Source: Promethearchaeota archaeon
GTDB lineage: Archaea; Asgardarchaeota; Lokiarchaeia; Sigyniarchaeales; SOKP01
Length of the DNA: 13,853 nucleotides
Assembly (NCBI GenBank): GCA_048938855.1
Contig: JBHLLT010000038.1
Span: 1,836 to 15,688 of the forward strand
Direction: 5' to 3'
Shown here: positions 956 to 13,212 of the stretch, piece after piece
How the letters are laid out: each line of letters starts with the position of its first letter
How positions within the stretch are numbered: the stretch's first letter is position 1
Translations under genes and position numbers: made by a program
The notes under the pieces: generated by a model
The model's input: only the letters and a program-made list of their open reading frames with translations
Told to the model about the DNA's origin: nothing
The model's database searches: none

Positions 956-1534
956 TTACTTTTTCTTTAGTTTAAGTACAATAGATTTTTCTTCTGCGAC
1001 TTTAGTAAGATTTCTTTTAAAAATATTTGATTTAGATTTTACATCTTTTGAATCAATTTTTTCATTTTTAAGTACTTGTGAAGTTACTTTCAGTGCTTTT
1101 TCTATATCCTCAATGGGTAGTAACGCAGCTGCAATACAGTAAAAACTTTTAGATCTACCCTCATTAAAGCTTTTTAACATTAAGTCAAGTAATTCTATTC
1201 TTTTTTGTTGCTGATTGAAGAATTGTTCAATCCCTTTTTCTTTAATTAATTTCAAATTTGAAAGAGAAACACGATGCGATATAAAAGAATCAACTTTGTC
1301 CCACTTATCGATTTTTGGGCATGGAAATTCATTACATTCAGCACAAGTTTCAAATTTATGCTCTTTAACGCAACAAGTGATTATACCACATGAAGGATGC
1401 CTATTTTGAAAATCTGGACCACAACATCCAGGACATCTTGAAGGTCCTTTAGTATAATAAACAGGACATAACCCACAATCCAATCCACAGCATGCAATTG
1501 TAGGATATTCTTTCGTGGCTAGTTGCTTAGTCAT
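956..1534 (-). CDS. DUF3795-like cysteine-rich protein (probable metal/Fe-S binding)
   Basis: 192 aa; CCGLDCGLCP...CPGC...CGIITCC...TCAECNEFPC is the DUF3795 Cys pattern; C-terminal FNEGRSKSFYCIAAALL extension. Confidence 0.8.
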   Translation of the reverse strand: MTKQLATKEYPTIACCGLDCGLCPVYYTKGPSRCPGCCGPDFQNRHPSCGIITCCVKEHKFETCAECNEFPCPKIDKWDKVDSFISHRVSLSNLKLIKEKGIEQFFNQQQKRIELLDLMLKSFNEGRSKSFYCIAAALLPIEDIEKALKVTSQVLKNEKIDSKDVKSKSNIFKRNLTKVAEEKSIVLKLKKK

Positions 1535-1666
1535 TATATAACAAATTAGTAATTCGTTTAATACCTATTACAAGGATTTTAAAAAATAAAAAGATTATAA
1601 GAAAAATATTAAAAATATGAAATAATTCTTAGGATTAATCATTAGGGAAAAACTTGAAATTTTAAA

Positions 1667-4009
1667 ATGAAAGCATCAACATTGAAAAAATTAAATTTAT
1701 TAATTGAAGAAGCTAATGCTCTTAAAGATAAAAATAACTTCTCGAAGGCAATTAAAAAGCTCCAAGAAGCTTTAGATTTTATTAATTTAAAGGTTAAAGA
1801 AGAGGAAGATAAAGTCACTGAAATAGAGAATATAAAAAATGTGATTAACCAAACATATTCTGTTCAAGTGGATAGTGTAATCCAAGTTGGTATACATCAT
1901 ACAGCTCAAAAGAGGTATGATAAAGCAAAAGAGGAATTTCAAAACGCACTAAAGATTATTGAAAATATAGATGACGTTCAGCTGAAAAATGCTGAAGTTG
2001 ATGAAATAAATAAATTGATTAGTGAAAATGATATAGAGCAATTATTAGCCGGTGGACTTGAGTTGAAAAATAAAGGTAACCCCGATGAAGCTTTAGCAAT
2101 ATTTCAAAAGGCATTAAGTATTGCTGAGAAGATTTATCAAAACAAATTTAGTTCAGAAGGTATTTTAAGAATTAAAAATGAGATTGCCCTTATTTATGAT
2201 TCCCAGATTGATAAAATTATAGAAAATGGTAAGGATCTTAAAAAAAATGGACAAAACGATGAGGCTATTAAAATTTTTGAAAATGCTTTAAATACTATTA
2301 AAATGTATTTTGATCCAAAAGATAAAAAAACCCAAATTAGTACTATCAAGAACCAGATTAATGAAATCTATTCGAATCGAATTAAACCTTTATCTGTAAG
2401 GGGAAAAGATTTATTACAACAAAACTTAATGGACCAAGCAATTACTGAGTTTAAAAATGCTTTATCAATAGCGAATAAAATGTACGATTCTGATTTAAAA
2501 ACCCTTGAATTAAGTCTTCTTGCCGAAGTATTAAACCCTATTTACATTGATGAAATTGATTCACTCATTCAAAAAGGTAAGGAAATTACACAAAAAGACA
2601 ATTATGCTGAATCTATATCATTAGTCAATGAAGCTGTCGATAAATTCTATCAAGCTTCTGATATAATAAAAAATATGGTTCAATCAGAATTAACAGATAT
2701 TAAAGTAAATGAAATTAATGAATTGATCAATATTTCATGTCTAGCTGGAATTAATGTAATTAAAGATAAATCTATTCAGGTTATAGTTCAAAAAAAATAT
2801 GAGGAGGTAGTGAGTGATTTATATTCTGCTTTAAGTTTAGCGAAAAGAATGCCATACCCGGAAGATCAAAATCCAGAATTAGAGAATCTAAAAAACTTAG
2901 TTAATAAGGTTTATTTGGCTGAAGTAACTGAAGTTGTAAATAAAGCAGACAAATTGGTAGAAAAAAAAGAGTTCCAAAATGCAATAGATACCTATAATGA
3001 AGCATTGATTATGACCAATAAAATGTATTTAACAACTGAAATGGAAAAAGAAGTTCGTAAGATTAAAAGTTTGATCTATGAAACGGAAATCAAACAATTA
3101 GTTGGAAAAGGAGAAGTAACAGAAGAACAGAAATTAAAAGAGAAAGAGATCGAAAAACTCAAAAAACGACTCGAATATGCCCAAACTATAGATGATCCTG
3201 AACGACGAGTAGCAGAAATGACAAAGATTAAAAAATTGATTGATGAAGTCCATTCAGAGGAAATTAAATTATTAATAGAACAAGGGAATCAACTAGCTGA
3301 TTTAAAAAAATTTGATGACGCCTTTAATTTCTACGAAAAAGCATTAAAAGTCAATGAAATGATGGAATCACCAGATGTAAAAAATAAGGATCTAATTAAA
3401 ACATCTTATAAAAAAGAATTAATCAATCGAGCGAAATTTGAATTAGAAAATCGAAATTATGATAAATCAATTGAACAGTGTACCCGAGCTCTAGAATTAG
3501 ATGATATTTTTGTTGATGCATATCATTATCTCGGTCTTAATTATTACTATAAGAAAAATTATACACTTTCAATAGACAATTTTCAAAGAGCTGTAGATTA
3601 TGATAAAAATTATTTTGAATCATGGAAATGGTTAGGATTAACGTATGAAGCAAAGGAAGATTATGATAATGCTCTCGAAAATATAAGTAAATCAGTAGAA
3701 ATAAATCCTAATTATGCGGACGGTTGGTTTAACTTAGGAAATGTGTATAAATTACGAGGAGAATTTGATAAGGCTATTGAAAGTTATGATAAAGCAACAG
3801 AAGTAGAAGTTGAATTCGCGAATGCATGGTTCTTCAAAGGAATTGCATATTTTGATAAAAAAGATTATAATAATGCTGTTCTCAGTATTGAAAAGGCAAT
3901 TAAATTAGACCCAAATCTGGGTAAAGACATCACTACTCATGTAAAAGACTTTAAAAATGTTATCGAAAAACTTCAAGAGGATCTTTCGATGTCCTTTATT
4001 AAGAGATAA
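1667..4009 (+). CDS. Large helical-repeat protein: about 10 N-terminal 55-65 aa repeats plus about 5 canonical C-terminal TPRs
   Basis: 780 aa; C-terminal 34-aa TPRs (e.g. ADGWFNLGNVYKLRGEFDKAIESYDKATEV, ANAWFFKGIAYFDKKDYNNAVLSIEKAIKLDPN); recurring I.xLIxxG..L.....xxA...FxxAL units in the N-terminal region. Confidence 0.88.
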   Translation: MKASTLKKLNLLIEEANALKDKNNFSKAIKKLQEALDFINLKVKEEEDKVTEIENIKNVINQTYSVQVDSVIQVGIHHTAQKRYDKAKEEFQNALKIIENIDDVQLKNAEVDEINKLISENDIEQLLAGGLELKNKGNPDEALAIFQKALSIAEKIYQNKFSSEGILRIKNEIALIYDSQIDKIIENGKDLKKNGQNDEAIKIFENALNTIKMYFDPKDKKTQISTIKNQINEIYSNRIKPLSVRGKDLLQQNLMDQAITEFKNALSIANKMYDSDLKTLELSLLAEVLNPIYIDEIDSLIQKGKEITQKDNYAESISLVNEAVDKFYQASDIIKNMVQSELTDIKVNEINELINISCLAGINVIKDKSIQVIVQKKYEEVVSDLYSALSLAKRMPYPEDQNPELENLKNLVNKVYLAEVTEVVNKADKLVEKKEFQNAIDTYNEALIMTNKMYLTTEMEKEVRKIKSLIYETEIKQLVGKGEVTEEQKLKEKEIEKLKKRLEYAQTIDDPERRVAEMTKIKKLIDEVHSEEIKLLIEQGNQLADLKKFDDAFNFYEKALKVNEMMESPDVKNKDLIKTSYKKELINRAKFELENRNYDKSIEQCTRALELDDIFVDAYHYLGLNYYYKKNYTLSIDNFQRAVDYDKNYFESWKWLGLTYEAKEDYDNALENISKSVEINPNYADGWFNLGNVYKLRGEFDKAIESYDKATEVEVEFANAWFFKGIAYFDKKDYNNAVLSIEKAIKLDPNLGKDITTHVKDFKNVIEKLQEDLSMSFIKR

Positions 4010-4115: not shown

Positions 4116-5729
4116 TTATTCAATTTTCTTTAAGTGTCTTAGACCTGTAAAGAATAAAGGAAGCGCTATCGCAAGGTGTATGGAAATGAATAATACAGTA
4201 GGAGTTAATTCCCAAGTTGTGATTTCCGGTAATATTCCGCTCAACCAAACCATTAAAAATATGAAGCCTGTAAGTACTCCCATTTGGATACTCATAAGTT
4301 TAAACATATTCAATCCCATGAATTTTCCCTTTTCTTCGAATGCGGGACTAAATCCCTGTATTCCAATTGCTTCAATCAGTACCAGTATCCCATAAGATAA
4401 ATAGGATATGATAAAAACAACCACATAAAACGCATCAAATTGAAATAGAATAGTAAAGAATATTGTTACAACCAAAGCTAATATTATATTGATAATAAAC
4501 ATCGATATTATGAAGGAATAGACAAGACTGTTTACATTCCTAGGACTCCGCTTATACACCCATAATAAGTCTTTACTGCCTACAAAGATGAAATTCCCAA
4601 GCATAAGCCCATAGAGGAGTCCTCCCATGAATATTACCATAAATACTTTAAATCCACCGGATATGAAATCGTTGGCAGCTCCACTTACAGAAAATGAAAA
4701 AATCAATCCATAAACACAGGTAATCCCACCTAAATAAACTAATTTCATGATATTTTCTTTTTTTCGGAAAAATTCCTTGAACTGAGTGATTACTAATCCC
4801 TCCCATTTTACACCTAAAATCCATCTATTCAATTTGTAAAAGGCATTTTCTTTCTTTATAATAGAACTCGTTTTCTCAACTCCCCCTTCTAGGGTGTAGA
4901 AAACATCTGCTTTTTTATAAGAAAGGTATGAGATTAATAAAGGTACGAGAATTGTTAGAGCTAAACTCATCCATATATTTAAGATATAAGGGTTTAATAA
5001 TCCAGGATCAAAAGTATAGAGTATTATATTAGAAAACCATAGAGGCGGATACCACATAAAATAATTTTTAAGCTCTGGATTTTCCAAGATGAACTGAAAG
5101 CCAAACTGTAATGAGTAAATGAGAGCGACCATTCCAATTGTAAGTAAAATCAATAAAACTTTAGCATAATCTCGTGCTTTTTCACTCTTAGCAATCTTAC
5201 GTTCCAGCCAACTCATGATTATACTACCAATTAAGGTTGCCAAAAATACAAGACCAAATACACATATATAAATTACCAAAGTCTGGACAAACGACAAATT
5301 AAAAATTGGATTCAGCATATTTACAAAGATGGGTGTGAGAGCAAATACGAAAGAGAAAAGAATGGGCATCTTTCCTAAGAACTCTCCCAAAAAGATATCT
5401 CCTGCACTAATTGGGGATGCCAACAGGATTTCTTTAAATCCAATCTCAGTTTTACGATACACGTTATTAAGAGGATACATCATAATTACAATAAAGAAGA
5501 TCATCATAACTTGTTCTATAATCATCGCTATAGATGGAATCAAAATTGTAGAGATCTCCTCCATCCCGGCCAAGGTTGGCATAAATTGGTCAAATATGAA
5601 TGGACAAAGATAAAATGCCCAAAAGATTAGGAAAGAATATAAAACTAAGAAAAATGCTTTTCTATTTTTGCGAAATTTTGAAGTCCTAAGTCTGACTTCA
5701 TTCATAGCAATTTTCGTCCATAAAGCCAT
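4116..5729 (-). CDS. ABC exporter permease (polytopic, two fused permease-like halves)
   Basis: 537 aa, about 12-14 hydrophobic segments; EILLASPISAGDIFLGEF ABC-2-type coupling motif in the first half and LWVYKRSPRNVNSLVYS in the second; begins 6 bp after the ATPase stop. Confidence 0.8.
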   Translation of the reverse strand: MALWTKIAMNEVRLRTSKFRKNRKAFFLVLYSFLIFWAFYLCPFIFDQFMPTLAGMEEISTILIPSIAMIIEQVMMIFFIVIMMYPLNNVYRKTEIGFKEILLASPISAGDIFLGEFLGKMPILFSFVFALTPIFVNMLNPIFNLSFVQTLVIYICVFGLVFLATLIGSIIMSWLERKIAKSEKARDYAKVLLILLTIGMVALIYSLQFGFQFILENPELKNYFMWYPPLWFSNIILYTFDPGLLNPYILNIWMSLALTILVPLLISYLSYKKADVFYTLEGGVEKTSSIIKKENAFYKLNRWILGVKWEGLVITQFKEFFRKKENIMKLVYLGGITCVYGLIFSFSVSGAANDFISGGFKVFMVIFMGGLLYGLMLGNFIFVGSKDLLWVYKRSPRNVNSLVYSFIISMFIINIILALVVTIFFTILFQFDAFYVVVFIISYLSYGILVLIEAIGIQGFSPAFEEKGKFMGLNMFKLMSIQMGVLTGFIFLMVWLSGILPEITTWELTPTVLFISIHLAIALPLFFTGLRHLKKIE

Positions 5730-5735
5730 AATCTA

Positions 5736-6551
5736 TCACTTCCCTTTCTTTTTTTTTTTCTTATTAGGGTTTTCACTATTTAGACCATTTTCACGCCACG
5801 ATAATAAGTCTTCTAGATGCTTTGCCCCCATAATTTTAAGGTATGCATCTTCTAGATCTTTTGCATTTTGAGATTCAATAATATCGTTTGGACGACCTTC
5901 CAATTTCAAAGTCCCTTTATCAATTATACCTATAATATCGCATAACTCTTCAGCTGCATCAAGTAAATGAGTACAGATAAAAATAGTTTTATCTGCTTTC
6001 TTCGCTAAATCTGATATAAGATCTTTAACCATTCTCGCTGCTGCAGGATCTAGATTAGATGTAGGTTCATCCAAAAAAATAATCTTGGGATCCTGAATTA
6101 AAGCTGCACAAAGACAAACCTTCTGTTTCATTCCACGCGAATATCCTTCAAGCAAATCGTTTTCACGCCCTTCAAGGTCAAATAGATCAAGGAGCTCATC
6201 TATACGACTTGCAATAGTTGCTTTCGGTAAATAATACAATTCGCCGATAAACTCTAAGAATTCTTTCGCTGTTAATTTTTGATATAATCCAGGAGATTCT
6301 GGTAGAAAACCACAGATCATCTTCACATCATTTGCTTGAGTGAGAATATCATAACCCCCAATTGAGGCTGTACCATTTGAGGGGGAAATAATAGCATTTA
6401 ACATCCTAACTGTGGTGGTTTTTCCTGCACCATTAGGCCCCAGAAGACCATAGGTACTCCCATACGGAATCTCAATATTTAAATCTCTTACAGCTACAAT
6501 ATTACCAAAATTCTTTGTGAGATTTTTGGTCATTATCGCATATTTTTCCAT
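5736..6551 (-). CDS. ABC transporter ATP-binding protein (ABC-2/drug exporter type)
   Basis: Walker A GPNGAGKTT, signature YSRGMKQK, Walker B IIFLDEPT, H-loop CTHLL. Confidence 0.96.
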   Translation of the reverse strand: MEKYAIMTKNLTKNFGNIVAVRDLNIEIPYGSTYGLLGPNGAGKTTTVRMLNAIISPSNGTASIGGYDILTQANDVKMICGFLPESPGLYQKLTAKEFLEFIGELYYLPKATIASRIDELLDLFDLEGRENDLLEGYSRGMKQKVCLCAALIQDPKIIFLDEPTSNLDPAAARMVKDLISDLAKKADKTIFICTHLLDAAEELCDIIGIIDKGTLKLEGRPNDIIESQNAKDLEDAYLKIMGAKHLEDLLSWRENGLNSENPNKKKKKKGK

Positions 6552-6610
6552 TTTTTTCTCTATACACTTCCAAAATTTTTCTGTTTTTTTTTTATTTATT
6601 TTATAGATTT

Positions 6611-7030
6611 TTAATTCTCAGCTTCTTTTTCGAATAGATCCTCAAAGTTCATTCCTAATCCCTTGGCAATTTTAACTAATACATTATCATTAAAAATTGA
6701 ACTTACCTCTTCGTCGTCTATTTCGCTCAAAGAAGCCAATTGTTCGAGACTGATATCAGCAACATTAGCAATCTCTCTTAATTCTGCTAATGGTTTACCC
6801 TCTAAGATATCTTTAATTACTGGTTCTTGATAAAAAATCTCATCTATAGGTTTTTTCAAGATTTCCGATATTTTAAAAGATATTGTCAAGGATGGATTAT
6901 ATGAACCCCGTTCTAAGTAATATATTGTCTGGCGAGAAACTCCTACAAGATTAGCTAATTCTAACTGGGACAAATTTAATTCCTCCCTGAATTGCCTTAC
7001 TCTTGAAGCGATTTTTTTCTTAAATTTCAA
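6611..7030 (-). CDS. XRE/Cro-CI family HTH transcriptional regulator with a second, degenerate C-terminal HTH-like region
   Basis: REELNLSQLELANLVGVSRQTIYYLERGSYNPSL...KISEIL is a canonical HTH_3; TTG start preceded by GGTGA SD (minus strand GGTGAGAACGG-TTG). Confidence 0.9.
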   Translation of the reverse strand: MKFKKKIASRVRQFREELNLSQLELANLVGVSRQTIYYLERGSYNPSLTISFKISEILKKPIDEIFYQEPVIKDILEGKPLAELREIANVADISLEQLASLSEIDDEEVSSIFNDNVLVKIAKGLGMNFEDLFEKEAEN

Positions 7031-7094
7031 CCGTTCTCACCATTTACTCAATTTGGAGTTAAAATAATCAAAATATTAAAAAAAATGTTCAATT

Positions 7095-7922
7095 TTAAGC
7101 TAATTTAAACAAATCTTCTATTTTACAATGAAGTACTTCCGCAATTTTGTATGCTAATGCTAAACTTGGATTATATCGACCTTCTTCTAAGAAATTTATC
7201 GTTTGAATTGGTACTCCCACTTTTTCAGCTAAAACGGCAGGGCTCATATTAATACTTTCTCTTTTTTCTCTGATAGTTGTCTTTAAAGATTCTCCTTCTC
7301 GCATTTTCGAAAGGATATAACTAATAAAATTATCAAAAGCAAGTTCTTCCGGTTTAAAGATTTTATCTTCTAATCCGCTTGGAATCTGAGAATATTTTGT
7401 CATCATTTCTATTATTTTGTTCTCAATTATGTATGGATCCTCAAGCCCTGGAATAAGACCTTCAGGACGTACATTGCCTCCACCACCCCCTCCGGCACCA
7501 CTAGCTCCTGCTGTCTCTATTTTTACAGTATAGATCTTATATAATCTATCGAAAACACCATTAACAATATTAATGTTTTGAATTCGAGTATAAGGAATTG
7601 TTGCTCTTTTCTTTGTAAAAACTCCATGGCGAATTATTATGTTATTTTCGGATATTTCATAAGAATACAGTTTTACATATTTATTAAGATACCACAGTGA
7701 GAATGGTATTACAATAACCAAGGGCAGCAATACAGAGTAAATTATCAGCCAAAGAAACAGACTCAATGTAAAGACTAATGGATCAAAAAAGTAGCTTAGC
7801 CAATATGTCAAGATCATCCAAACTGCATAAAATACAATATACCCTAGAATAATTTTAATAATTGATTTTTTCGTGTAACTTCGAGAAATACCACCTTCAT
7901 ATGCAAAGTCTTTTTGACTCAT
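7095..7922 (-). CDS. Membrane protein: 2 TM helices + bacterial PH domain (bPH_2, YdbS-like) + C-terminal XRE HTH
   Basis: Two N-terminal hydrophobic segments; YSYEISENNIIIRHGVFTKKRATIPYTRIQNINIVNGVFDRLYKIYTVKIETAG is typical bPH_2; C-terminal REKRESINMSPAVLAEKVGVPIQTINFLEEGRYNPSLALAYKIAEVL is an XRE HTH; GGAGG SD at 7932-7936 on the minus strand. Confidence 0.88.
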   Translation of the reverse strand: MSQKDFAYEGGISRSYTKKSIIKIILGYIVFYAVWMILTYWLSYFFDPLVFTLSLFLWLIIYSVLLPLVIVIPFSLWYLNKYVKLYSYEISENNIIIRHGVFTKKRATIPYTRIQNINIVNGVFDRLYKIYTVKIETAGASGAGGGGGGNVRPEGLIPGLEDPYIIENKIIEMMTKYSQIPSGLEDKIFKPEELAFDNFISYILSKMREGESLKTTIREKRESINMSPAVLAEKVGVPIQTINFLEEGRYNPSLALAYKIAEVLHCKIEDLFKLA

Positions 7923-8036
7923 TTTATTTTTCCTCCATTTTATTTTAAATTTATTTTTATATATGTAAACTATAATTGTACTAATAATTTAGGCTTTTAA
8001 ACCCCGAAATGTGTTATTTCGAAATTTTTATTCCTT

Positions 8037-8055
8037 ATGTAATATTTATTTACAT
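8037..8055. promoter_or_regulatory. Palindromic putative XRE operator ATGTAA-N7-TTACAT
   Basis: Perfect 6-bp arms, immediately downstream of the minus-strand TATA box. Confidence 0.55.
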
Positions 8056-8058
8056 TAA

Positions 8059-8073
8059 TATTTAAATGTTTCG
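8059..8073 (-). promoter_or_regulatory. Archaeal BRE-TATA promoter for the PH-XRE/XRE/ABC cluster
   Basis: Minus strand reads CGAAACA-TTTAAATA, about 140 bp upstream of the ATG at 7922. Confidence 0.5.
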
Positions 8074-8122
8074 TTTTAATTCTTAAATGTTGCTTCTGGG
8101 ATTCTTTATCCTATTTTAATTG

Positions 8123-8142
8123 ATGTTAAGCAAGCTTTACAT
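8123..8142. promoter_or_regulatory. Second palindromic putative operator ATGTTAAG-CAAG-CTTTACAT
   Basis: 8-bp arms with one mismatch; shares ATGT...TTACAT ends with the 8037-8055 site. Confidence 0.5.
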
Positions 8143-8480: not shown

Positions 8481-8669
8481 ATGAATAAATTTCCATGTGG
8501 TGTCAAACATAACTTTGATACTGGAGTTATAATTGAGAGTGATGATCGTAAGAAATATGAGTGGAATTGCTCTACTTGTTATTTGAAGGAAACTATACTT
8601 ACTAAGGAAGATTTCGAAGAATTTAAAATGAATGGAAGAGTTATTTGCCCTCTATTAACGTATGAGTAA
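8481..8669 (+). CDS. Small Cys/His-containing hypothetical protein (possible zinc-binding micro-protein)
   Basis: 62 aa standalone ORF with CGVKH, CSTC and CP motifs; GGTGA at 8464-8468; long T-tract right after the stop. Confidence 0.6.
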   Translation: MNKFPCGVKHNFDTGVIIESDDRKKYEWNCSTCYLKETILTKEDFEEFKMNGRVICPLLTYE

Positions 8670-8788: not shown

Positions 8789-9631
8789 TTAGAATTTTAT
8801 TGAGGATTCTAGAATTTTTTTCATTCCAAGATTATGAAAGTCAAGTAGTTGGGGTAACATTGATAATATTGCCATTGGGAGTGGAATTGGTATTGGAATT
8901 TTGAAGAAACTTTTTTTCCAATCAATTATCATTAACCCAAATATATCCTCTAAATGGATAGCAATTTCTTTAAGTATATGAAATGAATAGGCTTTTTTTT
9001 GTTCTTGTGGAAGAAAATTTTCAATGTTTTCAAGAATATTTTTAATAATATCAAATGCGGGGGCACTAAGGTAATATTTATTGATTCCAGAAAGTTGGTT
9101 TTCTAATTCTCCTATATCCTTATCATGAAATATTAATTTAATTTCAATTTCGTTCTTACGTTTATTTAAGATTGAAACTATTTTCTCATCATAATGAGAG
9201 AGAGGAAGAAATGAAATAATTGTTTCTTTGGCTGTATCTATCAACATATAGAGATATTCTTGAAGCACTGTTTCTCCCGCAATGCCGATAAAAGGTAAAT
9301 CTTCAGCTTCTTCTGTATCATAAATATTATCTATTATTTCAATACTTTTCTGCCCTAAATCCTGAATTTTACGAGAATAGTTTAGTAAATGTTCTTGAAT
9401 TACTTCTTTTGGCTTAATGAGGTACATTTTCTTTTTCTTTTTAGGATAAATATCAATGAAACCCTTTTGTTGAAGTTTAATCATTGTTTCGTAAATTTTG
9501 GGTTGAGGAACGCCACTGTATTTATGAATTTCATGAGCACTTAAGATTTTATAACGTATCAGGGTGGTGAGTGTTTGAGCTTCATATTGAGTAAAACCGA
9601 AGTTTTGCAGTAATTTTTCTAAATGATTCAT
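8789..9631 (-). CDS. TrmB family transcriptional regulator
   Basis: LQNFGFTQYEAQTLTTL...SAHEIHKYSGVPQPKIYETMIKLQQKGFI winged HTH; C-terminal effector domain remnants (IDTAKETIISFLP, LMIIDWKKSF). Confidence 0.92.
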   Translation of the reverse strand: MNHLEKLLQNFGFTQYEAQTLTTLIRYKILSAHEIHKYSGVPQPKIYETMIKLQQKGFIDIYPKKKKKMYLIKPKEVIQEHLLNYSRKIQDLGQKSIEIIDNIYDTEEAEDLPFIGIAGETVLQEYLYMLIDTAKETIISFLPLSHYDEKIVSILNKRKNEIEIKLIFHDKDIGELENQLSGINKYYLSAPAFDIIKNILENIENFLPQEQKKAYSFHILKEIAIHLEDIFGLMIIDWKKSFFKIPIPIPLPMAILSMLPQLLDFHNLGMKKILESSIKF

Positions 9632-9653
9632 ATCAAGCTAAATCTTCAAATTT

Positions 9654-9668
9654 CAAAATATTTATATA
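9654..9668 (+). promoter_or_regulatory. BRE-TATA for the ABC-2 operon
   Basis: CAAAATA-TTTATATA. Confidence 0.45.
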
Positions 9669-9680
9669 TGTTTTGCTATG

Positions 9681-9698
9681 TTACTACTAGAGTAGTAA
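9681..9698. promoter_or_regulatory. Perfect palindrome TTACTACT-AG-AGTAGTAA, putative TrmB operator
   Basis: 8-bp perfect arms in the divergent trmB/ABC intergenic region; TACT...AGTA half-sites resemble described TrmB-family motifs. Confidence 0.7.
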
Positions 9699-9700
9699 TA

Positions 9701-9713
9701 TATATAAATTTTT
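9701..9713 (-). promoter_or_regulatory. BRE-TATA for the TrmB gene
   Basis: Minus strand reads AAAAA-TTTATATA, about 70 bp upstream of ATG 9631. Confidence 0.45.
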
Positions 9714-9761
9714 ATATTCTGAATAATCATAAAAAATTTAGAATTTTTTAAGGTAATTAAT

Positions 9762-10781
9762 GTGTCAGTAAATGAGAAAGAAAATCTGGTCAATAATTCT
9801 AGCCAAAAATCTACTAACGTTCTTATCGAATTAAATCGGGTCAGCAAAAATTACCCTAATACCGTTGCATTGGACAATATTTCATTTCAGATTCATAAAG
9901 GAGAAATTTTCTGTTTAAATGGACCAAATGGAGCAGGAAAATCAACACTAGTAAAATTAATAACAGGACAGTTGAAGCAAACTAATGGAACAATTAAAGT
10001 TAAAGGCCGAGATCCTTATAATGAAAGAAAATCGTTATTTGGTGTGTTTGGTCTTGTCCCACAAGAAATAGCTTTATATAATGAACTTACTGGTCGTGAA
10101 AATTTAGAATTTCATGCAAGATTATATAATGTACCAAAATCTGAAATAAGTCCTAAAGTTGAGAAGTTATTAAAGCTTGCTGGTCTTTTTGAAAGGAGAA
10201 ATGATCGAGTTGGAACTTACTCAGGAGGAATGAAAAGACGTCTCCAATTAATCAGAGCATTACTCCATGAACCAGAACTTCTTATATTAGATGAACCAAC
10301 GTTAGGAGTAGACGTTCAGACACGTAGTGCAATTCATGAATATATTTTAGAATTAGCCAGTCAAGGAATGACAATATTAGTAACTACAAATTATATGGAA
10401 GAAGCTGAAAGATTAGCTGAAAATATTGTCATTCTAGATACAAAGATAATTGAAGGACCTGGACGCCTACGTGAGATACAAGAACGCGTATTTCCAAACA
10501 CTATTTTTGAATTTAAAACTACCTATAAGAGTCTCACTTCTGAGTTTTATGATCAGTTTCTTAAACAAGAATTAAATGGACAAATTATAATGGAAAAAAA
10601 CTTGAGCGAAACACACTCGTTTTTTCAAATTATGTTTGAATCAAATAATATTGAAGAAATTATTGAAAAATTTCTGGGATATACTAAATCCCATAATATC
10701 CCTATTGAGGAATTTGTATTTAAAAAACCAACATTAGAAGATATCTTTCTTAAACTTACCGGTAAGGAGTTTAGAGAGTAA
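9762..10781 (+). CDS. ABC-2 exporter ATP-binding subunit (DrrA-like)
   Basis: Walker A GPNGAGKST, Q-loop VPQE, signature YSGGMKRR, Walker B LILDEPT, C-terminal PTLEDIFLKLTG; GTG start; H-loop reads TTNY. Confidence 0.95.
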   Translation: MSVNEKENLVNNSSQKSTNVLIELNRVSKNYPNTVALDNISFQIHKGEIFCLNGPNGAGKSTLVKLITGQLKQTNGTIKVKGRDPYNERKSLFGVFGLVPQEIALYNELTGRENLEFHARLYNVPKSEISPKVEKLLKLAGLFERRNDRVGTYSGGMKRRLQLIRALLHEPELLILDEPTLGVDVQTRSAIHEYILELASQGMTILVTTNYMEEAERLAENIVILDTKIIEGPGRLREIQERVFPNTIFEFKTTYKSLTSEFYDQFLKQELNGQIIMEKNLSETHSFFQIMFESNNIEEIIEKFLGYTKSHNIPIEEFVFKKPTLEDIFLKLTGKEFRE

Positions 10782-11977
10782 TGAAAAAGAAGAATGAGCT
10801 AAATATTAAAAAAGGATACGTTACTAATCTAAAATTATGGTTTCATGATTTAAAAACGATATTACATAAGGATCTAATTTCTACTAAAAGAGTTAAGAAA
10901 TATTTTATAACTGCCATAATTCCTCCTTTGGTTATATTAATTGTTTTTTCAACCTTTTTACTAGTTGATAATCCTGAAACATATACAGTTATGGTAGTTG
11001 ATGATGATAATACTAAATATTCCAATATTATGGTTAATTACATAAGCAATATCACCAGTGAATTTGCTCCTTGGTTTAATGTAATAGAAATCGATTCTTA
11101 TGAAGATGCGAAAACAAAATTAGAAAATTATGAAGTTTTGGGACTTATTCACATTCCCACTGGATTCCAAGCAAATATCACTGCTAATAGTACATATATT
11201 AAAGGAGTTCTATATTTGGAAGTCCAAAATATAAATGATGATTATGTAAAAAATTATATTCAAAGATTAGATGAGGCTGTTCTCGCTTTCAATCAATATG
11301 TACATTTATCTAGTGGTCATGTAGATAATTTCGAGCTTATTGCGAAAAAGTCTTACGTAATTAATCAAGATGTAAGTCAAATAAAGGGGATAGTCATAGG
11401 TGTTATTGGAGTATATGGAATTGTATGTGGTCTATTATATGGAGGGTTAAATGTAGCAAAAGAATACAATGATGATACAATGATTGAAGTTATAATTAGC
11501 CCAATTAAGCGTAGTGCTTATATTGCATCAAAGCAATTAATAGCGGTTATTTTAGGGTCTATTGTCGTGTCAATTTTATCTCTTATCTTATTTTTGATAT
11601 TTAACATAGAATTTCGTGGTAATTTAGGAATAGTTATTTTAGCATTCCTCCTTTCAACCTGGTTTCATACATGTTTAGGTGGTTTAATTGGATTAAAATC
11701 AAAACATACGATGAACGTAATTCTAATAACGATAGTTATAGGAATTCTTTTTTGGTTTTTTTCAGGAGGATTTGCTCCCACAAGAATGTTAGGAGGTACA
11801 GTCTATTTAGTTTCAAGGTTCATTCCTGCAACTTACTGGATGGAGATTTTATTTTCAGAAACGTTATTACCAAACCTTTTTTATGTTTTACCTAGATTAG
11901 GGATTCTAGCAATATCGTGTATTTGTCTTACTATTCTTTTTTGGGTTTTAATTTCAAGGGAGGGATTTAAGTTATGA
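10781..11977 (+). CDS. ABC-2 type permease with large extracellular domain (ABC2_membrane_3-like)
   Basis: TM1, VMVVDDDNTKYS loop motif, EYNDDTMIEVIISPIKRSAYIASK coupling motif, FFSGGFAP, SRFIPATY; TAATG overlap with the ATPase. Confidence 0.92.
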   Translation: MKKKNELNIKKGYVTNLKLWFHDLKTILHKDLISTKRVKKYFITAIIPPLVILIVFSTFLLVDNPETYTVMVVDDDNTKYSNIMVNYISNITSEFAPWFNVIEIDSYEDAKTKLENYEVLGLIHIPTGFQANITANSTYIKGVLYLEVQNINDDYVKNYIQRLDEAVLAFNQYVHLSSGHVDNFELIAKKSYVINQDVSQIKGIVIGVIGVYGIVCGLLYGGLNVAKEYNDDTMIEVIISPIKRSAYIASKQLIAVILGSIVVSILSLILFLIFNIEFRGNLGIVILAFLLSTWFHTCLGGLIGLKSKHTMNVILITIVIGILFWFFSGGFAPTRMLGGTVYLVSRFIPATYWMEILFSETLLPNLFYVLPRLGILAISCICLTILFWVLISREGFKL

Positions 11978-13212
11978 TAAAAAAGGTTTCTAAGAAAAAG
12001 AATTCAACAATTGCTCTGCTTAAAAATGAGATCTCAAAAAATATTAAAATAATTTTCCGTGGTCCTTCTCGTACTTTATTGCTGATTTCTTTAATATTTC
12101 CAATAACCTATTTGTTTTTTATGAATATGATTTTTGGAGCTGTAAATTTTAATTACCCAATTGCTCTTGTAATTCCTGATTATAATTCTGATAACGAACT
12201 GAATTTTGCCTTAGAAAACAATGAGATCCCAAATGTCGAGGAATTCATGGATTATTTAAATAACAACGATTTAGTAGGCCCAACAATTGTAAAGAGCCAT
12301 ATACAAATGATCGGAATTTCAGCCCAGCAATTTGAAAACATATTAAAACTTGAGGAGATTGTTATGATTGCTATACTTCCTGAAAATTTTGAAAATATAA
12401 TACAATCTGTGAAAAATGGTACATGGACAGAGGGTAATGTTACAATTGAGTTAAGATGCTTAAATATTCATGAAGATTATCTCAAAAATCTATACTTTGG
12501 ATTTCAGAGAAAGCTAAAAGCATATTATGATAATGTTTTGTTTAATGAGACTGAAGTAATTTATGTTTATAGTGATGCTCATCCTGAAAGACAAACCTTC
12601 CCGCGAATGTGGACGATTGGTACAGAAGCAATAGTATTTGTTTGCTTAGTTTCTTCAATGATAATTGGCTCTGCATTTATATTTATTGAGAAAGGTAATA
12701 GAATGACTCCTGAACTTGCGCTTGCTACTGCACCAAATCAAAATTATACTTACTTGGGGAAAGTACTTTCAGCGAGTATTTTGAGTTTTATTATCAATTT
12801 TACATTAGGGACAACGATCATTTTTCTTTGGATTGGGATCCAGTTTCCAGTAAATTTTCTTGGCTTTTTATTAATTTCTTTCGGTTCTATTATTTTAGGG
12901 TCAATTCTAGGGACTTTCCTTGGAGCTTTAATCCCAGAACAAGTATATGCTTTCCCAATATCCTTGTTTACTGTACTTGCAACCCTTTTTTTATGTGGAG
13001 GATTTGTGTCTGTTGAAATGTTCGGTCCCCTTCTTCGTTCTATTGCTAATTGGATTCCTTTCACGTATCTCTATACTATTATGGGAAATACTGTATTAAC
13101 CGGAGATGCAGCTAGTGTGATTCAGATTCTTGGTTTAATTGGCTATATTATATTATTTTTTGGTTTAGGTTTAATAATATATCGAAGATTTGTAATAAAA
13201 CCTAAAAATTAA
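11974..13212 (+). CDS. ABC-2 type permease, second subunit
   Basis: TM1, PIALV loop start, EKGNRMTPELALATAP...YLGK, FLCGGFVS, ANWIPFTY; ATGA overlap with the preceding permease. Confidence 0.92.
   Translation: MIKKVSKKKNSTIALLKNEISKNIKIIFRGPSRTLLLISLIFPITYLFFMNMIFGAVNFNYPIALVIPDYNSDNELNFALENNEIPNVEEFMDYLNNNDLVGPTIVKSHIQMIGISAQQFENILKLEEIVMIAILPENFENIIQSVKNGTWTEGNVTIELRCLNIHEDYLKNLYFGFQRKLKAYYDNVLFNETEVIYVYSDAHPERQTFPRMWTIGTEAIVFVCLVSSMIIGSAFIFIEKGNRMTPELALATAPNQNYTYLGKVLSASILSFIINFTLGTTIIFLWIGIQFPVNFLGFLLISFGSIILGSILGTFLGALIPEQVYAFPISLFTVLATLFLCGGFVSVEMFGPLLRSIANWIPFTYLYTIMGNTVLTGDAASVIQILGLIGYIILFFGLGLIIYRRFVIKPKN

Follow-up and report, generated by a model that had tools for sequence, protein, structure and literature searches.

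The closest described parallels to the locus analysed here are membrane systems that work without a kinase. CylR1/CylR2, the regulators of the Enterococcus faecalis cytolysin, combine a membrane protein with a small XRE protein and use no phosphorelay; the route by which CylR1 signals to CylR2 is unknown (PMC3709268). Transmembrane transcription regulators (TTRs), which have at least one transmembrane (TM) segment and a DNA-binding domain in one chain, include BcrR-type membrane-anchored DNA-binding proteins that have no obvious outer sensor domain and control a transporter of the ATP-binding cassette (ABC) type (PMC3968067, PMC10269533); bacitracin is sensed by BcrR without an outer domain (PMC3968067). 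YdbS and DdE follow a plan of two TM segments and a bPH_2 domain, and ydbST is sigma-W dependent (PMC3498285). The window, i.e. the whole 13,853-nucleotide stretch analysed from contig JBHLLT010000038.1 of a Promethearchaeota archaeon, contains a four-gene unit headed by a membrane protein in which two TM segments and a bPH_2 (pleckstrin homology, PH) domain are fused to an XRE-type helix-turn-helix (HTH), followed by a soluble paralogous XRE and by exporter genes. The unit is a real, conserved variant of the known kinase-free membrane regulators, with a mechanism that we infer, and the new finding is a two-state switch of the fusion, which is either solo, mostly with intact DNA-reading residues, or partnered by a soluble XRE, with its reading helix remodelled. 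The genes of the unit are (aa, amino acids):

7095..7922, minus strand: fusion gene (gene 1), 275 aa; two TM segments, bPH_2, conserved linker helix (195-208) and CylR2-like HTH with remodelled reading helix
6611..7030, minus strand: soluble XRE (gene 2), 139 aa; intact CylR2-like HTH, then a degenerate second HTH
5736..6551, minus strand: ABC ATPase (gene 3), 271 aa, DrrA-like exporter type
4116..5729, minus strand: permease (gene 4), 537 aa, 12 TM segments, like the ABC_tran_2 / 12TM_1 clusters

Open reading frames (ORFs), Pfam matches and TM analysis bore out the four co-oriented genes (TM-TM-bPH_2-XRE; XRE; ABC ATPase; permease) described in an earlier note on this DNA. The gaps from gene 1 to gene 4 are 64, 59 and 6 nt, and these short gaps together with a single promoter region suggest co-transcription. 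The fusion gave Pfam matches to bPH_2 at residues 86-142 (E 1e-16) and to HTH_3 at 217-271 (E 3e-15), and its TM segments span residues 21-39 and 54-72, approximately; its structure model (predicted local distance difference test, pLDDT, 79.7) comprised two long helices, a PH sandwich with a weak structural match to 3dcx, a helix at 196-207 and a five-helix HTH. The soluble XRE, which starts with TTG preceded by a GGTGA motif, matched HTH_3 (E 6e-20). For both HTHs the closest solved structures were CylR2 and DR_2454, and CylR2 (1utx) was nearest in structure and sequence (E 6e-11; shared motifs SQ-ELA, SRQTI and YNPSL), with a template modelling score of 0.89-0.90 by target and 44% identity to mark a CylR2-like small XRE. 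In one clade the XRE has a degenerate HTH as its second domain (window 6611-6820); in two further groups with a partner (L040:5598-5984; L041:5498-5899) that partner is a single XRE of 65-75 aa.

Reading residues were scored at four positions, the glutamine of helix 2 and the S/T-R-Q that opens helix 3 (Q22 and S32-R33-Q34 in XRE numbering), which contact DNA in 434/Cro-type HTHs. All four were intact in 63/63 soluble partners and in 0/63 partnered fusions, 56 of which keep none or one; the window fusion has P228, P238 and I239 where its partner has Q22, S32 and R33 and keeps one of the four. Seven of the nine solo fusions keep all four residues, one keeps three and one, whose operator is lost as well, keeps none, and no other CylR2-like gene was found in the genomes of the solo fusions G041, G042, G045, G046 and G053. 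As a prediction fixed before inspection, the association of helix and state held in 9 of 10 further divergent loci, most of which are kin (four intact fusions were solo and five degenerate ones had an adjoining XRE; an ambiguous one, which was solo, and P0138, where the contig ends, stand outside the count), and it also held in two paralogous loci. HTH-free trees gave two partnered clades, both supported and separated by solo forms, and two changes of state; a single partnered clade was narrowly rejected (approximately unbiased test, p-AU 0.046). Partnered fusions fall into at least two clades, with substitutions that differ between them, and the residue pattern has many counts but few independent events behind it. 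An orphan fusion (L157:4447-5295) has a degenerate helix and a long branch; 8.4 kb of sequence showed neither an operator nor a partner for it (the genome being 81% complete). Three loci (L038:4360-6629, L142:145-2540, L155:2996-5523) carry a tandem fusion pair for a single XRE, both helices being remodelled; such pairs could provide several inputs to one repressor.

The region upstream of the fusion contains the following elements (BRE, transcription factor B recognition element):

8123..8142: operator A, a palindrome of 20 bp (ATGTAAA-N6-TTAACAT) that lies about 50 bp upstream of the BRE; same position in relatives
8057..8074, minus strand: BRE/TATA-like element of putative function, TTTAAATA core, 2-4 nt upstream of site B; kept in relatives
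8037..8055: operator B, a palindrome of 19 bp (ATGTAA-N7-TTACAT) immediately downstream of the TATA (repressor position)
7963..7983: site C, with TTTACAT as its only canonical half, the other half being non-canonical but conserved

The two palindromes that the earlier note had placed on either side of a BRE/TATA were recovered, and site A lies beyond chance; site C was absent from that note. With an operator matrix built from 48 sites of other genomes, the window being left out, site A scored 22.6 bits, the top score in the 3.95-Mb genome (runner-up, 15.4 bits). Shuffled genome sequence gave 0.33 sites at 19 bits or more, and at 13-17 bits shuffles outnumbered the matches in the real genome. 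Because site A tops the genome and nothing else exceeds background, the operator can be taken as real and this unit as its regulon; judged from sequence matches, the regulon would be limited to this operon. A wider regulon was rejected, as no further site rose above background and the permease paralogues had none that reached 13 bits. In 40 larger loci, matrix matches lay mostly at the head of the transcription unit of the fusion. The spacing between A and B is 86-88 bp in about 20 related loci, which, with B close behind the TATA, would suit repression with an auxiliary site.

Because the window fusion has lost the Q/S/R positions (P228, P238, I239), the soluble XRE is the likely DNA reader in this genome, and the membrane fusion itself probably does not read the operator. 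The earlier note had allowed regulation through either HTH; the soluble XRE is retained as the likely route, and the remodelled residues speak against the HTH of the fusion. Partners with a Q-to-E change (L139, L140) go with CGTGAA operator halves and partners with a T-to-M change (L046, L047, L146) with GCAAC halves and a shorter spacer, each operator variant representing one clade. The same canonical operator is found across very different fusion helices. Solo relatives keep 4/4 reading residues and an operator upstream and have no partner. The operators of L049 are hybrid sites despite an unchanged partner helix, and the four residues leave both L049 and L057/L133 unexplained: the latter two are solo fusions with tandem AGCTAAG-N4-CTTAGCT palindromes (upstream of 6672 and of 197, respectively). 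The SRTT helix of L057 was dropped as the cause of the AGCTAAG operator, since its relative P0128 has TRQT and the same operator.

The mechanism that we favour, and to which we give about an even chance, is an autoregulated kinase-free two-protein switch in which the XRE represses and the remodelled HTH of the membrane fusion binds the XRE and sets its activity. The soluble CylR2-like XRE would sit on the palindromes around the promoter and repress the operon, occupancy of site B blocking the start and site A probably assisting by looping. The paralogous HTH of the fusion, with base-reading residues lost and fold and dimer face retained, would bind the XRE, and the PH-linker part would read a signal at the inner membrane face, upon which the repressor would be pulled off DNA or released. 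Solo fusions of other lineages would be ordinary one-component membrane regulators of the same operator. The architecture, the operator and the two-state residue pattern stand at the level of sequence; a soluble DNA reader, a heterodimer and repression are what we infer.

The remodelled helix is conserved and not decaying, with P238 in 51/51 and I, L or V at position 239 in 51/51. Identity within the fusion was 0.95 for the linker helix, 0.80 for the HTH, 0.77 for the PH domain, about 0.5 for the TM segments and 0.36 for the outer loop, and the wing and dimer face of the HTH are among the best-conserved parts. These values bear on the improbable reading that the HTH of the fusion is a folded relic making no regulatory contact, the XRE being a stand-alone autorepressor and the membrane PH protein its regulated cargo. 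Redundancy predicts that reading residues are lost once a soluble copy has been gained, and exporter operons are commonly headed by small XREs; however, HTH and linker helix are the best-conserved parts of the fusion, the XRE has no sensory domain, and the fusion-XRE pair remains adjacent while every other neighbour changes.

A complex model of fusion residues 80-275 with the XRE scored 0.48 versus 0.00 for the best of three controls (the mark for this score was reached by 58/80 solved pairs and by 2/110 mismatched pairs, both at 0.60 or under); model runs agreed in at least 46% of contacts, with a partner pLDDT of at least 81. The model lends weak support to a fusion-XRE complex, and equal weak support to the main rival of sequestration and release, namely co-binding on DNA, in which the XRE would read the canonical half and the fusion helix another half, with the promoter tethered to the membrane in a ToxR/TcpP-like co-operation. 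Co-binding, which we consider possible but unlikely, would be in keeping with the strict conservation of the remodelled helix, the asymmetry of site C with its conserved odd half, the hybrid sites at L049 and the retention of Q240 and T241 in most fusions, whereas fusion helices as different as PIQT, KNET, SRTT and SETT share one canonical operator, the best sites are symmetric, and partnered fusions carry a more acidic helix 2-3 region (mean -1.3 vs +0.1 in XRE). Several points weigh against the two-protein switch: four partnered fusions of genus g9 retain 2-3 of the four residues; the one miss among the predicted loci, P0133, is degenerate (SKQT) yet solo; the phylogenetically independent contrasts number only 2-3 and the sign test is not significant; the roles given to the reading residues rest on general knowledge of 434/Cro-type HTHs; the complex score may echo likeness to solved CylR2 homodimers; and the remodelled helix, conserved as it is, could just as well recognise another half-site.

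No TM segment separates PH from HTH, which places the two domains on one side of the membrane, and the basic residues that precede TM1 point to N and C termini of the fusion on the inside. The outer loop is the least conserved segment and variable in length, and the cytoplasmic PH-linker part is the most conserved. Because the outer loop is least conserved, followed by the TM segments, a receptor facing outside is unlikely, and the signal is more likely to be sensed within the membrane or at its inner face; with an identity of 0.36 and a length that varies, an external sensor loop was discarded as the principal input. Sensing of envelope stress or a peptide, as the earlier note had proposed, was not borne out given the common side of PH and HTH and the poorly conserved outer loop. 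An envelope theme is plausible by analogy with ydbST, DdE and BcrR and from the membrane-linked cargo, and our best guess is that the signal is what the cargo exporter removes, a lipid-like compound or a membrane-active peptide.

The co-occurrence of bPH_2 and HTH_3 was confirmed across genomes, the 2TM-bPH_2-XRE fusion being present in 99/161 genomes of the class (Lokiarchaeia, assigned from homologue names), and across it membrane fusion, soluble XRE and operator are conserved as a unit that regulates itself without a kinase. No fusion was found outside the class: other Asgard families in the phylum sample gave matches to the PH part only, and there was none among the named matches, although the representative library carries no taxonomy. 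About 20 near full-length fusion clusters at 50% identity were obtained by exhaustive profile search, and the Atlas holds a single fusion cluster with 61 archaeal members. PH-only homologues of other Asgard classes had no adjoining XRE and no operator in the six loci read, and a split PH + XRE precursor in those classes was rejected on these loci.

The constant core is operator plus fusion, with the XRE present or not, and the ABC exporter is variable cargo. The window itself has an exporter-type ATPase with an adjoining permease: gene 3 matched ABC_tran, with a TIGR01188 match below the family cut-off, and gene 4 has 12 hydrophobic segments, no match in Pfam or NCBIfam (bPH_2 included) and neighbours in the ABC_tran_2/12TM_1 clusters, an assignment by embedding look-alikes only. 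An ABC exporter adjoins the fusion in 24/39 informative loci; it is missing beside the other 15, and a fixed four-gene module was rejected. Fusion, XRE and operator are kept in the neighbourhood; the exporter genes vary, which weakens the earlier view of them as a fixed part of the module. The 537-aa permease occurs in this genus, in some g20 loci and, with all four genes in order, in one distant locus (L145; permease 46% and ATPase 78% identical to the window), and other families have a 572-aa permease without detectable sequence similarity to it. The TM-PH part might instead be an accessory of the exporter, as DdE and YdbS are, and report its activity to the HTH pair. We regard this as quite improbable: the YdbS-like DdE is needed for export of enterocin DD14 (PMC8657885) and ABC genes recur beside fusions in distant lineages (the four-gene copy L145; solo L048, L058 and L143), but the 15 loci have no adjoining ABC genes, the two permease types are dissimilar, and loci are without a YdbT-like partner gene.

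The window permease is one of five paralogous loci in the genome (the others are G000 C54, C75, C41 and C74); this unannotated 12-TM family is expanded in the genus and present in f6 and f7, with none in f2-f4 when the window protein was the query. Further cargo beside fusions includes DUF3784, DUF4386 and a protein of the beta-lactamase family. In L049:6021-8129 and L050:5822-7978, the XRE is separated from the ABC genes by a beta-lactamase-family (PF00144) protein of about 700 aa, and at L135:1250-1340 two extra operators precede a downstream DUF3784 gene as a second regulated promoter. Downstream of the unit (window 956-4009), a 780-aa tetratricopeptide repeat (TPR) protein and a DUF3795 protein are encoded, as in many genus-level loci; because these genes persist in L062 and L070, which have no ABC genes, loss of the exporter from a fixed site is suggested. 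A 62-aa ORF with Cys pairs and no family match (window 8481-8669) is kept divergently upstream of the fusion in L036, L061, L062, L063 and L071 (59-74% identity). At window 8789-13212, a TrmB-family regulator (minus strand) is divergent from a second exporter with a DrrA-like ATPase and two ABC2_membrane_3 permeases, whose starts and stops overlap; this region has no XRE-type operator.

The architecture is apparently undescribed, no published bPH_2-XRE fusion having been found in a search without most subscription journals. Somewhat short of an even chance, and thus tentative, is the broader proposal that Lokiarchaeia evolved, more than once, a membrane receptor with a decoy copy of the repressor, a pseudo-HTH that holds or releases the soluble factor. 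If true, one-component and split forms of a circuit coexist in one genome and give a view of a TTR becoming a two-protein relay; because G055 has a partnered fusion alongside two solo ones, a single organism allows work on both states. Membrane-to-gene signalling is barely characterised in Asgard archaea, and the family provides a regulator together with an exact operator and a mechanism that can be tested. It touches the open bacterial question of what lets a membrane partner control a CylR2-like repressor when no phosphorylation is involved and offers a concrete type of answer. A PH domain feeding directly into transcription is also of interest for the history of PH signalling, bPH_2 being a prokaryotic family.

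Judged by the features that define them, neither the CylR nor the YdbST systems include the unit. CylR1, as described, has three TM segments and no reported PH or HTH, in contrast to the 2TM-bPH_2-HTH protein found here. CylR1/CylR2-type pairs have a linked lantibiotic operon that a secreted peptide induces, and no lantibiotic genes were recognised in the mapped loci. YdbS and DdE, whose 2TM-bPH_2 plan the window fusion shares, have no HTH, are paired with YdbT or DdF and act as regulated targets or export factors, not as regulators; no adjacent multi-PH YdbT-like gene is present, and the genome search gave no bPH_2 match beyond the fusion. With TM segments and an HTH in one chain the window fusion has the composition of a TTR, and the solo fusions fit the BcrR plan, whereas the window fusion is without the reading residues; BcrR is an activator without a soluble paralogue and, to our knowledge, without a PH domain. 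Neither bPH_2 nor Asgard is mentioned in the covered portions of the text and supplements of the TTR survey. Known precedents are SinR with SinI/SlrR, where a paralogous mimic controls the repressor, and Mlc with PtsG, where a membrane protein sequesters it; SinI is soluble and imitates the oligomerisation domain, and Mlc and PtsG are unrelated. The window fusion would combine the paralogous mimic and the membrane sequestration in one protein.

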